DNA of 4,982 nucleotides from a virus (lineage: Duplodnaviria; Heunggongvirae; Uroviricota; Caudoviricetes): the IMG/VR virus record IMGVR_UViG_3300029499_000043; one strand, 5' to 3'. This document shows positions 2,300-4,982 of the stretch, one piece after another. Each line of letters opens with the position of its first letter. Position 1 is the first letter of the stretch. Below the pieces are notes generated by a model. The model worked only from the letters and a program-made list of their open reading frames with translations, searched no databases and was not told the origin of the DNA. The position numbers and the translations under genes were made by a program.

Positions 2300-2707
2300 A
2301 TGAACGAGAAAACTTTAGGTCAACGCATTAGAGAAAGACGTAAGCAGGTAGGTTTAAGTCAAAACGGTTTAAGCAAAGCTGCTGGCGTATCTGGCTCATC
2401 AATTTCATTATGGGAAAGTGACCATACAGCCCCGCGCGGGCAAAATTTGCATCGCCTCGCCGAGGTATTGCAATGTTCACCAACCTGGATACTGTTTGGC
2501 GACGAGGACAAAACACCAGCTCCCCCTGTTTCACTCGATAGTGCCTTAGACTTATCGGAAGATGAGTTAGAGATGCTGCGTTTGTATCGCGCACTTCCTA
2601 AATCAGAGCAACAAGCACAACTCAGCGAACTCCGCGCCCGCGTTGAGAATTTTAATCGCCTGTTCACCGAGCTATTAGAGGCTCGCAAACGCAACAAGCA
2701 TCAATAA
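2300..2707 (+). CDS. dicA: DicA-like HTH (XRE-family) prophage repressor, 135 aa from ATG 2300 (MNEKTLGQRIRERRK...). An alternative upstream ATG at 2249 would give 152 aa.
   Basis: The N-terminal region has a clear helix-turn-helix signature (QRIRERRKQVGLSQNGLSKAAGVSGSSISLWESD). The VLQCSPTWILFGDEDK segment and the C-terminal region match my recollection of DicA. The 135-aa length equals that of DicA. No strong Shine-Dalgarno for either start, so the start is uncertain (possibly a leaderless or short-leader transcript, as for cI). Confidence 0.8.
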   Translation: MNEKTLGQRIRERRKQVGLSQNGLSKAAGVSGSSISLWESDHTAPRGQNLHRLAEVLQCSPTWILFGDEDKTPAPPVSLDSALDLSEDELEMLRLYRALPKSEQQAQLSELRARVENFNRLFTELLEARKRNKHQ

Positions 2708-2794
2708 TCATCCCTTCACAAAATTTTAAAGCCTTACATTTCAATGTATTGGCTTTATCTTGCGCCAATACTTGAGTTTTCTCATCAAAAAGCC

Positions 2795-2823
2795 TTGACG
2801 AAAAATAATGAGAAAACTAAATT
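2795..2823 (+). promoter_or_regulatory. Candidate sigma70 promoter of the ydfA-dicF-dicB operon (PdicB-like): -35 TTGACG at 2795..2800, 17-bp spacer, -10 TAAATT at 2818..2823. Flanked by operator-like copy B (2772..2785) and overlapped by copy C (2809..2822, inverted).
   Basis: Hexamers and spacing read from the sequence. An operator overlapping the spacer and -10 is the classic repressor arrangement. Promoter strength is not computable here. Confidence 0.5.
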
Positions 2824-2899
2824 ACCTCCATCAACACACCGCACGGTGTTCTCAGCAAACAGTTCCGCTACCCCGGCGTTAAGGGGAAATGAGGTCAGC

Positions 2900-3055
2900 A
2901 TGGATACTATCGATCTTGGCAACAACGAATCTCTGGTGTACGGCGTGTTTCCAAACCAGGACGGCACGTTCACCGCAATGACGTATACCAAAAGCAAAAC
3001 GTTTAAAACCGAAAATGGTGCCCGTCGCTGGCTGGAAAGAAACTCAGGTGAGTGA
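2900..3055 (+). CDS. ydfA: YdfA/YdaF-family small prophage protein (DUF1391-like), 51 aa (MDTIDLGNNESLVYGVFPNQDGTFTAMTYTKSKTFKTENGARRWLERNSGE).
   Basis: Internal ATG of track ORF 2744..3055. Shine-Dalgarno GAGG at 2891..2894, 5 nt upstream. The 51-aa size and sequence match my recollection of the YdfA/YdaF family. First gene downstream of the repressor on the early-left side. Confidence 0.8.
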   Translation: MDTIDLGNNESLVYGVFPNQDGTFTAMTYTKSKTFKTENGARRWLERNSGE

Positions 3056-3056
3056 T

Positions 3057-3632
3057 ATGGATTTCGACACAATCATGGAAAAGGCTTACGAAGAATACTT
3101 CGAAGGCCTTGCCGAAGGCGAAGAAGCTCTCAGCTTCAGTGAGTTTAAACAGGCACTCAGAATAAGAATGCGCTCTCACAATGACGCGGAGCACAAATAT
3201 GAGAAGCAAAATCAGACCGCAGAAAATTTTGTTCTGGAACCCGGAGAAACGCTTTTCAAAATTCCCGTTACGTGCCCCATTTGCGGTTTTACATCAGAAG
3301 AACTTGACGACTCCTGTAACAATCAGGAAACAACCAAGTATGTCGAAGATGATACCGAGTGCGCACGAAGAACGATTATATCCACGAGTCCAAACTCCAG
3401 GACCAATAAATCTCACTTTGAGAGGGTGATTAATCCACTCCCCCAAACCAATAAAAAAGATGCCGGAGGACAAAAAAACCAATGGAACAACGGGATATCT
3501 GTCAAAAAAAGACGTTCCATTAAAGACAAACAACGCAGCGCCAACAACTGTAAGCGCTTTATACCAGTAATCAATTTTCATGTTCTTAAGCGGATTTATT
3601 GGTGGTTGCGACATTGCTTAATGAATCCTTAA
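3057..3632 (+). CDS. ydfB/ydfC-like early gene(s). One uninterrupted frame from ATG 3057 (MDFDTIMEKAYEEYFEGLAEGEEAL...) with a second in-frame ATG at 3168 (MRSHNDAEHKYEKQ...). The true 3' extent is uncertain: the C-terminal 80 codons are K/N/R-rich low complexity over A-tracts.
   Basis: Shine-Dalgarno AGGTG 6 nt upstream of ATG 3057. The start is 1 nt after the ydfA stop, which suggests coupling. In K-12 this region is annotated as two small genes (ydfB, ydfC), as far as I recall. Here no stop occurs until 3630..3632. The tail contains poly-A runs at 3453..3458, 3472..3478 and 3504..3510. Confidence 0.5.
   Translation: MDFDTIMEKAYEEYFEGLAEGEEALSFSEFKQALRIRMRSHNDAEHKYEKQNQTAENFVLEPGETLFKIPVTCPICGFTSEELDDSCNNQETTKYVEDDTECARRTIISTSPNSRTNKSHFERVINPLPQTNKKDAGGQKNQWNNGISVKKRRSIKDKQRSANNCKRFIPVINFHVLKRIYWWLRHCLMNP
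3294..3614 (-). CDS. Candidate small membrane protein, 106 aa, with three predicted hydrophobic helices, antisense to the 3' part of the ydfB/C-like frame. Possibly a superinfection-exclusion or holin-like protein; possibly an artefact.
   Basis: ATG at 3614..3612 with AAGGA about 11 nt upstream on the minus strand. Hydrophobic segments are ALTVVGAALFVF, VVPLVFLSSGIFFIGLGEWI and ALGIIFDILGCFLIVTGVV. Caveat: an antisense reading of lysine/asparagine-rich A-tracts automatically yields Phe/Leu-rich hydrophobic stretches. Confidence 0.3.
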   Translation of the reverse strand: MSQPPINPLKNMKIDYWYKALTVVGAALFVFNGTSFFDRYPVVPLVFLSSGIFFIGLGEWINHPLKVRFIGPGVWTRGYNRSSCALGIIFDILGCFLIVTGVVKFF

Positions 3633-3891
3633 AACTGTGGTGATTTTAAGGATACCACCTCGCCTGACGTGGTTAAAAGCAGGCACACAACACGAAAGCG
3701 CACGGCGAAGTTCGTCTCACTGTACGGTGTCGTCAAATTTAATTCGACCGTGCGCTTCCGGTTGTGGCAACCCGCGAAATGGCGCGGCGGTAAGTATGGC
3801 GGGGTTATTCCTTCCCCGTTGAGGACACCGAGTTGTCAGGTTGACCATACGCTTAAGCGACAACCCCGCTGCAACGCCCTCTGTTATCAAT

Positions 3892-3949
3892 TTTCTGGTG
3901 ACGTTTGGCGGTATCAGTTTTACTCCGTGACTGCTCTGCCGCCGTTTTT
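3892..3949 (+). ncRNA. dicF: DicF small regulatory RNA (Hfq-dependent antisense inhibitor of ftsZ translation), including its intrinsic terminator: stem GGCGG 3907..3911 with CCGCC 3939..3943, then T-tract 3945..3949.
   Basis: The sequence TTTCTGGTGACGTTTGGCGGTATCAGTTTTACTCCGTGACTGCTCTGCCGCC followed by TTTTT matches the roughly 53-nt DicF RNA as I recall it, almost base for base. It lies in an ORF-free stretch immediately upstream of dicB, as in Qin. Confidence 0.85.
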
Positions 3950-4118
3950 AAAGTGAATTTTGTGATGCGGTGAATGCGGCTAAGCGCACGCGGAACAGTT
4001 AAAACCAAAAACAGTGTTATGGGTGGATTCTCTGTATCCGGCGTTAATTGTTAACTGGTTAACGTCACCTGGAGGCACCAGGCACTGCATCACAAAATTC
4101 ATTGTTGAGGACGCGATA

Positions 4119-4307
4119 ATGAAAACGTTATTACCAAACGTTAATACGTCTGAAGGTTGTTTTGAAATTGGTGTCACTATCAGTAACCCTGTATTTACTG
4201 AAGATGCCATTAACAAGAGAAAACAAGAACGGGAGCTATTAAATAAAATATGCATTGTTTCAATGCTGGCTCGTTTACGTCTGATGCCAAAAGGATGTGC
4301 ACAATGA
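4119..4307 (+). CDS. dicB: DicB cell-division inhibitor (acts with MinC on FtsZ), 62 aa (MKTLLPNVNTSEGCFEIGVTISNPVFTEDAINKRKQERELLNKICIVSMLARLRLMPKGCAQ).
   Basis: Strong Shine-Dalgarno GAGGA at 4107..4111, 7 nt upstream of ATG 4119. The 62-aa length and sequence match my recollection of DicB. Located downstream of DicF. Confidence 0.9.
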   Translation: MKTLLPNVNTSEGCFEIGVTISNPVFTEDAINKRKQERELLNKICIVSMLARLRLMPKGCAQ

Positions 4308-4495
4308 ATTCAGCATTTGCGCTTGTTCTGACAGTTTTTCTTGTTTCCGGAGAGCCAGTTGATATTGCAGTCAGTGTTCACAGGACAATGCAGGAGTGTA
4401 TGACTGCAGCAACCGAACAGAAAATTCCCGGTAACTGTTACCCGGTCGATAAAGTTATTCACCAGTATAATATCGAAATCCCGGCAGGTCTTTAA
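4304..4495 (+). CDS. ydfD: YdfD, a small prophage lysis protein with a hydrophobic N-terminus, 63 aa (MNSAFALVLTVFLVSGEPVDIAVSVHRTMQECMTAATEQKIPGNCYPVDKVIHQYNIEIPAGL).
   Basis: ATG 4304..4306 overlaps the dicB stop TGA 4305..4307 (ATGA overlap). Shine-Dalgarno AAGGA at 4291..4295. The 63-aa size and sequence match my recollection of YdfD. The track ORF 4250..4495 is an N-terminally extended version of the same frame. Confidence 0.85.
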   Translation: MNSAFALVLTVFLVSGEPVDIAVSVHRTMQECMTAATEQKIPGNCYPVDKVIHQYNIEIPAGL

Positions 4496-4588
4496 AACAG
4501 TTCCGTAATAAATATCCGGTTTCATTCTTATATGCCAGCAATGGCAGGGATTTGTTCATCCTTAAATCTGTCATGAGGTTAAAACAAA

Positions 4589-4982
4589 ATGAGTAAAGTC
4601 TTTATTTGCGCCGCTATTCCTGACGAACTGGCAACAAGGGAAGAAGGCGCTGTGGCTGTAGCCACAGCCATTGAAGCTGGCGACGAACGCCGTGCTCGAG
4701 CAAAATTTCACTGGCAATTCCTGGAACATTATCCGGCTGCTCAGGACTGCGCTTATAAATTTATTGTCTGCGAGGATAAACCTGGCATACCCCGCCCTGC
4801 CCTCGATTCATGGGATGCTGAATATATGCAGGAAAACCGCTGGGATGAGGAGTCTGCTTCTTTTGTCCCGGTTGAGACTGAATCCGATCCGATGAACGTC
4901 ACTTTTGACAAGCTGGCCCCTGAAGTACAGAACGCTGTCATGGTTAAGTTCGACACATGTGAAAACATCACCGTTGATATGG
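4589..4982 (+). CDS. ydfE: YdfE-like acidic protein, 3'-partial: 131 codons to the window edge with no stop (MSKVFICAAIPDELATREEGAVAVATAIEAGDERRARAKFHWQFLEHY...). Possibly the N-terminal region of a RecE-type exonuclease-family protein.
   Basis: ATG 4589 with Shine-Dalgarno GAGG at 4575..4578 (about 10 nt upstream). The open frame runs to 4981 without a stop, so it is absent from the supplied ORF track. Position after ydfD as in Qin. Identity from recollection only. Confidence 0.7.
   Translation, partial: MSKVFICAAIPDELATREEGAVAVATAIEAGDERRARAKFHWQFLEHYPAAQDCAYKFIVCEDKPGIPRPALDSWDAEYMQENRWDEESASFVPVETESDPMNVTFDKLAPEVQNAVMVKFDTCENITVDM

Follow-up and report, generated by a model that had tools for sequence, protein, structure and literature searches.

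A conserved gene for a predicted three-helix membrane protein lies antisense to an open early-operon frame in a Qin-type prophage of Escherichia coli

Introduction

In lambda, P22 and the Rac prophage, sieB encodes a small inner-membrane protein; the gene is located in the early-left region, runs against the operon around it and is thought to be expressed from the prophage. T4 Imm, P22 SieA, HK97 gp15 and RexB are small inner-membrane proteins of phages or prophages as well; such proteins can usually not be annotated by homology, and their genes are 'morons' with a promoter of their own. Here we analyze a minus-strand open reading frame (ORF) of 106 codons in a virus sequence of 4,982 nucleotides (IMG/VR record IMGVR_UViG_3300029499_000043; the whole stretch is called the window in the following), which covers the immunity region and early genes of a lambdoid E. 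coli prophage of the Qin/DicB type. Like sieB, the ORF would encode a small inner-membrane protein and is located antisense in an early-left lambdoid region. In contrast to SieB, with which it has no sequence relationship, the window protein is shorter (106 aa), carries other conserved motifs and is encoded by a gene which is wholly covered by an open frame of the early operon. It differs from Imm, SieA, gp15 and RexB in being unmatched in Pfam, PHROGs, PADLOC and BFVD and in belonging to a family that also occurs outside phages.

The slot between ydfA and DicF, in which the ORF lies, is occupied in the Qin prophage of K-12 by the genes of YdfB and YdfC, two proteins of unknown function within the dicBF operon, which is of the repressor-controlled early-left type (PMC5069750). 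In the window, the plus-strand ORF of this slot still starts with YdfB codons 1-34, which belong to a stretch of DNA with 99.4% identity to K-12, whereas a cassette takes the place of the remaining ydfB sequence and of the whole of ydfC, and the 191-aa product is a chimera that is homologous to neither YdfB nor YdfC.

Long ORFs on opposite strands of one locus, of which annotation retains only one, have also been described for E. coli O157:H7 (pop/ompA, asa, ano, laoB and olo; PMC7103648, PMC6294744, PMC9927249). In those pairs a young, taxonomically restricted ORF lies inside an old conserved gene, whereas in the window the embedded gene is old and widely conserved, and the ORF that covers it shows conservation outside the overlap only, being just kept open within it. 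The three papers do not describe the present locus, and our literature search found nothing on this gene, the dicBF paper likewise dealing with other loci.

Results

The minus-strand frame is the selected one

As claimed in an earlier note on this DNA, both strands carry long open frames over 3294..3614, and the ORF list confirms 106 aa on the minus and 191/205 aa on the plus strand. The plus ORF (3015..3632, 205 aa, or 191 aa if counted from the ydfB ATG at 3057) covers the minus ORF, and both share their codon boundaries (3612-3015 = 597 = 3 x 199), so that each codon of one is the reversed codon of the other (in-register antisense). Furthermore, the plus strand carries A-tracts over the locus. 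The minus ORF could be a non-coding shadow of a real 191-aa plus protein, its hydrophobicity resulting from reversed Lys, Asn and Glu codons; the earlier note had raised this alternative in the form of poly-A/lysine codons read backwards. The shadow explanation is favored by the fact that the plus ORF is annotated by the Prokaryotic Genome Annotation Pipeline (PGAP; WP_000344958.1) and present in PHROGs (phrog_35040), and that in-register antisense frames are most often open by chance.

The comparison of both frames suggested in the earlier note was carried out and found the minus frame constrained and the plus frame not. For the informative close pairs at 84-88% protein identity, the nonsynonymous substitution rate divided by the synonymous one (dN/dS) was 0.12-0.20 in the minus and 1.3-1.7 in the plus frame, and 22/40 and 35/53 of the differences fell on minus-frame codon position 3. 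Among the ungapped E. coli prophage copies (n = 86, 18 haplotypes) the variable sites were distributed 9/5/20 over minus-frame positions 1/2/3; no copy contained a stop in the minus frame, while a plus-frame stop was present in four copies (three haplotypes). A broken minus frame beside an intact plus frame, which the earlier note had named as speaking against the gene, occurred in none of the copies examined. An open minus frame is shared by all 36 distinct homologs, up to 17 stops interrupt the antisense frame of the non-phage ones, and gp33 of the Burkholderia phage Bcep176 is annotated in the membrane-protein frame.

These substitution patterns demonstrate purifying selection on the minus frame, and selection, intactness and homologs together identify the minus ORF as a real gene. 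With respect to the shadow explanation, not only the dN/dS values argue against it: distant homologs keep the minus protein with up to 17 stops in the plus frame, the plus-frame identity is what the minus frame alone dictates (see below), population variants break the plus frame only, and the plus ORF is a recombination chimera starting with 34 YdfB codons. We consider it extremely improbable. As judged from dN/dS and the expectation test, the derivation runs the opposite way, the Lys/Asn/Ser-rich plus tail being the product of hydrophobic codons read backwards and not the reverse.

Protein family and distribution

A word-indexed search yielded 60 homologs of the 106-aa protein, many of them 100-110 aa long and 34-58% identical, from Yersinia, Herminiimonas, Reinekea and metagenomes. 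Among GTDB species representatives 29 loci with relatives were found, which range from Gamma- and Betaproteobacteria to Desulfobacterota, Nitrospirales and others, and a profile search over 1.84 billion representatives returned 488 clusters (at 50% identity) with E <= 0.001, 218 of them with E <= 1e-10. Evidently, the 60 homologs and the 488 profile clusters lift the minus ORF far beyond a chance feature. The family, here called DYWYK / GLGEWINHP after its motifs, is defined by an alignment (A2) with 13 invariant columns (W17 Y18 K19 A20 G56 G58 E59 W60 N62 H63 P64 G87 G94). The window protein carries every one of them, with DYWYK at residues 15-19 and GLGEWINHP at residues 56-64; its length falls within the family range of ~100-110 aa, and it scores 134 bits against the family hidden Markov model (131.7 bits for its cluster representative P0001 in the 1.84-billion-protein search). 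By these sequence measures it belongs to an unnamed, uncharacterised family of ~100-110-aa proteins in Proteobacteria and beyond. Among 5426 complete E. coli genomes, 805 (~15%) carry the 321-bp gene.

Non-phage homologs have DUF5677, Imp-YgjV, glmS, an IS110 transposase and many ORFs without match as neighbors, and the neighborhood survey found no conserved partner gene beside them. The chromosome of Arcobacter sp. Pygsuia-1 contains three family copies (L026, L027, L028) with identical match statistics and flanking ORFs without Pfam match, suggesting a repeated mobile element. Distant members in Desulfobulbaceae and Desulfocapsaceae metagenome-assembled genomes (L037-L042) stand in conserved synteny with [NiFe]-hydrogenase-like genes, a context which is chromosomal and apparently vertically inherited, unlike the phage one.

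Predicted structure and searches for a function

The three hydrophobic segments noticed earlier are supported by the Kyte-Doolittle profile (19-residue window), which peaks at 1.41 (residues 20-38), 1.79 (40-58) and 2.45 (85-103), and by an AlphaFold2 (AF2) model with helices 17-32, 42-62 and 85-105 and a beta-hairpin at 66-78 (mean pLDDT 89). The window protein thus shows three helices in the model together with a basic loop between helices 2 and 3, the family-wide mean of Lys plus Arg residues being 3.4 in loop 2 and 0.8 in loop 1. This charge bias suggests an N-in/C-out topology. The hairpin would then likely be cytoplasmic, with the DYWYK and GLGEWINHP motifs predicted at the cytoplasmic face of the membrane.

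The earlier note had proposed a superinfection-exclusion, abortive-infection or holin-like protein. This proposal gained nothing from the profile searches against SieB, Imm and holin families, and the role remains a guess from the position of the gene. With SieB (PF14163), the window protein had no match up to E = 1, and 43 family members had none up to E = 0.01. Searches against T4 Imm / Imm_superinfect (PF14373) and the other Pfam exclusion families produced only sub-threshold matches, all to the unrelated families TMEM238, DUF7103, DUF7533 and DUF202, and the PADLOC-DB v2 defence models were not matched at E <= 1. A profile search against the sequences of the PDB found no match to the 106-aa protein, and Foldseek against BFVD returned nothing at E <= 0.001 (the single 'Holin' fold hit had E = 0.56 and a TM-score of 0.28).

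A holin or another lysis-timing protein would agree with the small size and the three transmembrane segments, which is the topology of class I holins, and with the lysis protein gene ydfD ~700 bp away. Yet none of the Pfam Phage_holin_* families matched the window protein or the 43 family members, and the gene is not part of a lysis cassette: its place is the interval from ydfA/ydfB' to DicF, on the strand opposite to the lytic operon and beside the repressor gene, with no adjoining endolysin or spanin gene. The chromosomal, non-phage settings of homologs and a C-terminus unlike the typical charged holin tail also speak against a holin, which we regard as very improbable. The protein may be a prophage-expressed accessory membrane protein, possibly with a role in exclusion or defence.

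The plus-strand frame: a constrained start and an unconstrained, stop-free tail

As outlined in Table 1, the 191-aa plus ORF consists of YdfB codons, a cassette-borne segment and the read-through of the membrane-protein gene. Its full length matches phrog_35040 and residues 1-34 match phrog_2061 (E = 2.5e-21); the similarity to the 42-aa YdfB does not extend over the full length but is confined to these 34 residues. Plus ORFs of other lineages matched phrog_35040 only and no Pfam family.

Directly 5' of the overlap the plus frame carries a conserved segment of 20 codons. Every phage-context lineage, and Roseateles too, has an equivalent of LEPGETLFKIPVTCPICGFT at this position (PLYDxCPxCG(C/F)D or PGSVxID..V.L.GW); the Roseateles peptide reads PPGATITPFYFNCPKCGHR. 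Pairwise differences in the region before the overlap amount to 52.2 on plus-frame position 3 versus 22.8 and 20.8 on positions 1 and 2, and this bias indicates that the segment evolves as coding sequence. A start codon with a Shine-Dalgarno (SD) sequence is located 31-47 codons before the overlap in each lineage except L012, for whose plus ORF none was found. In most lineages the plus ORF ends 5-13 codons beyond the start codon of the membrane gene. A reading of CPxCG as a zinc ribbon was dropped, as a second Cys pair is not conserved and one clade has VTLxGW instead.

Inside the overlap, the in-register antisense frame is stop-free in all enterobacterial phage homologs. TTA, CTA and TCA are used for 0 of 111 Leu/Ser codons in the membrane-protein genes, as opposed to 61 A-ending codons among 273 for Val, Ala, Gly, Pro and Thr; the chance of containing no TTA, CTA or TCA is 0.01-0.04 per gene. 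For a broader test IMG/VR loci were added and clustered at 70% identity, without correction for phylogeny. In phage or prophage context (21 clusters) 15 antisense stops were observed and 82.8 expected, with none in 14 clusters, whereas other contexts with GC < 0.52 (18 clusters) gave 117 observed and 81.5 expected stops and a single cluster with none. The deficit in the phage context (Poisson 6e-20) is a large effect, the exact P of which should not be leaned on. Amino-acid identity of the plus frame within the overlap was 0.244, compared with 0.239 expected from the minus frame (mean z = 0.12, 91 saturated pairs). These tests demonstrate that the plus frame of phage lineages is strongly depleted of stops across the overlap and at the same time free of amino-acid constraint there. 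The plus gene thus appears real at its 5' end, with a long tail that is kept open but unconstrained in sequence. Judged by the same patterns, the plus frame is not a mere shadow of the minus gene, a point which the earlier reading had missed.

With respect to these results, true dual coding has to be weighed, in which both proteins are functional across the entire overlap and the hydrophilic plus tail of ~110 residues would be a disordered appendage of the conserved N-terminal segment, with its composition and not its sequence being what matters. The stop depletion in phage lineages is in line with this, as are the coding signature of the conserved plus N-terminal segment, its SD and start codons and the hydrophilic, charged composition of the tail, which is guaranteed by the hydrophobic codons opposite. 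Against dual coding, the tail shows no excess amino-acid conservation in the 91 pairs, a stop comes immediately behind CPVC in L043, the tail is cut short in L166 and L136, plus-frame stops occur among E. coli variants, and in the window the N-terminus has been exchanged for YdfB codons. Consequently, we regard two functional proteins as decidedly unlikely. Somewhat short of an even chance, in our estimate, is a conserved two-gene antisense module of temperate phages in which an ancient small membrane-protein gene is embedded in an early-operon ORF, only the first ~20-45 plus codons are selected as protein and the other ~110 are stop-free but unconstrained; selection would then act on the passage of ribosomes and not on the product, with a benefit in shielding from polarity or in silencing the membrane gene head-on. 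In that case the locus would switch between a 'lysogen protein' and a 'lytic read-through' on opposite strands.

Two further loci illustrate the range of this arrangement. In Roseateles aquae (L016, 4959-5483) a betaproteobacterial copy has the same antisense architecture with a CPKCG peptide 5' of the overlap and lies upstream of a DUF5906/VapE-like primase gene, which indicates that the two-gene module is not restricted to enterobacterial lambdoid phages. In L178 (IMG/VR UViG_2529292829_000010, around 3001-3318) cassette and ydfC are both present, and the plus frame is open for 280 codons, from the cassette's own start through the antisense overlap into the full YdfC sequence.

Table 1 Features of the window (positions in the 4,982-nt stretch).
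Feature	Position	Strand	Basis or remark
HTH repressor gene	2300-2707	+	
Early-left (dicB-operon type) promoter TTGACG-17-TAAATT	2795..2823	+	Consensus scan; drives the plus-strand frame
ydfA (DUF1391), first gene of the early-left operon	2900..3055	+	RefSeq annotation of the identical locus
Chimeric ORF, 191 aa ('hypothetical protein'), stop codon 3630-3632	3057..3632	+	PGAP WP_000344958.1; PHROGs
YdfB codons 1-34 of the chimera	3057-3158	+	
Cassette, 517 bp	3158..3674		Stands where K-12 Qin has the ydfB 3' end, ydfC and the sequence downstream
Cassette-borne segment of the chimera	3159-3293	+	
Conserved coding segment LEPGETLFKIPVTCPICGFT, 20 codons directly 5' of the overlap	3234..3293	+	Related peptides; codon-position bias
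CDS of the predicted 106-aa three-helix membrane protein, ATG start, stop codon 3296-3294	3294..3614	-	ORF list, homologs, dN/dS, AF2
Part of the chimera that reads through the membrane-protein gene antisense and in register	3294-3629	+	
Shine-Dalgarno-like AAGGA, 11 nt upstream of the ATG	3626..3630	-	Sequence reading
Near-invariant upstream element, ~35 bp	3649..3684	-	Conserved among clades with proteins 35-58% identical
Putative -35 TTTAAC, 17-nt spacer, TGgTATCCT	-35 3677-3672; TG 3657-3656; -10 3654-3649	-	Read by hand
Inverted repeat GCCTG / CAGGC	3684-3680 / 3666-3662	-	Overlaps the upstream element
DicF sRNA, downstream part of the early-left transcript	3893..3944	+	Rfam RF00039, 72.5 bits, E = 3.8e-15
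dicB, ydfD, exonuclease gene (start only)	after DicF	+	
DUF977 gene, O-like replication gene, YdaT/CII-like gene, Cro-like gene		-	

Expression signals and the antisense setting

The early-left promoter is the sole consensus sigma-70 promoter that the consensus scan detected within 2700-4000. A 12-mer, TGAGTTTTCTCA, occurs in three copies (one on the minus strand with a single mismatch), of which two (2773-2784 and 2809-2820) flank this promoter and the third (2237-2248) lies in the repressor/cro intergenic region. These 12-mers are probably repressor operators, and promoter and bracketing operator-like repeats fit a repressor-controlled early-left operon of the dicBF type. The promoter/terminator scan found a single weak terminator-like site (3117-3098, inside ydfB), and DicF alone was matched in the Rfam scan of the window.

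The ATG start and the upstream AAGGA of the minus gene, both reported earlier, were read from the sequence as given in Table 1. An equivalent box, (A/C)(A/G)GGA or AAAGA, stands at the matching position in L043, L044, L009 and L012, and the mEp390/Pantoea clade has AAGGA with a TTG start. The near-invariant element further upstream is a putative extended -10 promoter. No operator 12-mer is located near it, and neither in the window nor in related loci did it match Rfam. With respect to the properties of 'morons', the opposite orientation is present, as is an upstream extended -10-like element free of operator repeats, which the consensus scan did not call. The element follows the pattern GCCTG-N13-CAGGC..GGTGGTAT(C/T)(C/T)T and recurs in L018 (4145-4178), L132 (5294-5327), L133 (5656-5689) and L150 (6190-6226); in other phages it also precedes unrelated genes of 66-94 aa. 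In L167 both repeat arms carry matched changes (GCCGGG/CCCGGC). The element could be a portable promoter/operator or a hairpin in the plus-strand RNA. Two further candidates were discarded: for a CII-dependent pRE-like promoter that would lie upstream of the mEp390-type copy, the conserved TTGC-N6 motif is part of the coding sequence of cII, which makes its conservation uninformative, and the 36 nt conserved past the stop of the membrane gene form no convincing terminator hairpin by eye, their substitutions being synonymous in the plus frame.

Consistent with the earlier statement that the ORF lies antisense inside the early-left operon, the gene runs against ydfA, DicF, dicB, ydfD and the exonuclease gene, converges with the repressor gene and adjoins the immunity region. 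In L009-L013, L018, L043 and L044 it likewise converges with the repressor gene and is directed against the early-left genes; in homologous prophages with like placement the protein identity is 51-88%, with 39% for Pantoea. In mEp390 and its relatives the interval from cro to cII contains the membrane gene, which there too is antisense to the early operon. In three related phages a tRNA gene is situated just upstream of the membrane gene on the opposite strand (Gly-CCC in L009, 5802-5875; Asn-GTT in L010, 3952-4033; Arg-TCT in L160, 2776-2852).

This setting raises the question of a convergent sense/antisense switch acting at the RNA level in the manner of type I toxin-antitoxin systems, in which the membrane protein is an effector that is toxic or arrests growth and the early transcript the antidote or, in the reverse form, transcription of the membrane gene damps a leaky toxic DicF/DicB operon. 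Such a switch is suggested by two fully complementary, convergent transcription units, by their joint movement between two locations in phages (one at the head of the early-left operon, the other in the cro-cII interval) and by the known toxicity of the downstream operon (PMC5069750). However, non-phage homologs have no antisense partner, type I toxins do not resemble a 106-aa protein that carries a conserved polar motif, no result of this analysis points to toxicity, and control by RNA alone would not need an open plus frame. We therefore rate the RNA switch as unlikely.

Cassette and annotation

Around the locus, blastn aligns the window with the Qin prophage of MG1655 at 2829-3157 (99.4%) and 3675-4982 (97.6%). 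The left joint of the intervening cassette follows YdfB codon 34 and places the YdfB N-terminus in frame with the plus frame of the cassette, whereby the 191-aa chimera was created. In four RefSeq complete-genome records PGAP annotates only this chimera (WP_000344958.1) or a ydfB pseudogene and never the minus gene; in newer PGAP runs only the pseudogene remains (3057-3158, flagged 'missing C-terminus'), leaving the locus without an annotated gene. phrog_35040, WP_000344958.1 and UniRef A0A148HRN8 are all built on the chimeric plus ORF. NCBI does list the 106-aa protein as 'hypothetical protein' from other assemblies (e.g. WP_247162388.1), so the earlier statement that the gene is unannotated at this place holds for the four RefSeq records and not for NCBI at large. 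A related strand inconsistency is found in mEp390: gp39 (L004, 3456-3911) is annotated on the antisense frame of a membrane-protein homolog, and its note cites similarity to Bcep176 gp33 (L005, 3384-3848), which is annotated in the membrane-protein frame.

Discussion

Taken together, we consider it highly probable that 3294..3614 is a genuine gene for a 106-aa inner-membrane protein in an antisense cassette, and we propose the following lysogenic/lytic mechanism for it. In the lysogen the operator-flanked plus promoter would be repressed, while the membrane gene would be transcribed from its own conserved extended -10 promoter, which lacks an operator, and the lysogen would gain an accessory function from its product. 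A tentative candidate for this function is superinfection exclusion or abortive infection, with a probability that we place clearly below even; it is proposed because the position beside the repressor gene is a classic site of such genes. Upon induction, early-left transcription and translation would run head-on through the membrane gene and silence it. As the early ORF is kept open, ribosomes would cover the ~330-nt stretch and may shield DicF, dicB and the recombination genes from Rho-type polarity; the simplest explanation of a plus frame that is open but free of sequence constraint is that this stretch needs such ribosome cover.

Several points weigh against this picture. For the 106-aa protein, transcription, translation and membrane insertion are predictions, and the Rho-polarity rationale is hypothetical. 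The 11-nt spacing between AAGGA and ATG is long, the proposed -35 matches the consensus at 3/6 positions only, and the strict consensus scan called no minus-strand promoter at 3649..3684. The hydrophobicity of segment 1 is marginal in the E. coli protein (Kyte-Doolittle 1.41) and higher in distant homologs. Nothing specific was found for the protein in Pfam (including the SieB, Imm and holin families), PHROGs, NCBIfam or PADLOC, and many homologs reside in non-phage contexts, so the family does not imply a phage-specific role. The stop-depletion test assumes independent 70% clusters, one enterobacterial codon usage and coarse context classes, and one phage clade as well as the Burkholderia phages do have antisense stops. 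Finally, frameshifted alleles occur in some E. coli assemblies (P0009, P0015-P0019, P0026, P0032, P0058). They diverge at or near A/T homopolymer tracts, at about 3440-3520 of the window, and 0 of 86 ungapped IMG/VR copies carry an indel; the frameshifted versions could be true pseudogenes, phase-variable slippage or sequencing errors.

A prophage accessory membrane gene is of a known kind, and the conserved antisense architecture is the unusual part of the locus. About 15% of complete E. coli genomes carry the gene, yet the RefSeq genomes inspected and PHROGs show a wrong-strand chimera or nothing. Owing to this misannotation, a conserved membrane protein of the immunity region is largely invisible to comparative and defence-system surveys, and its location in the classic slot for lysogen-expressed exclusion and defence genes makes it a cheap, testable candidate. 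The plus frame, in turn, is a clean natural case of an ORF that is maintained open without amino-acid constraint, in which 'selection for translation' can be told apart from 'selection for a protein'. It is relevant to the assessment of overlapping or shadow ORFs and to the question of how an antisense insert is accommodated in early phage operons.

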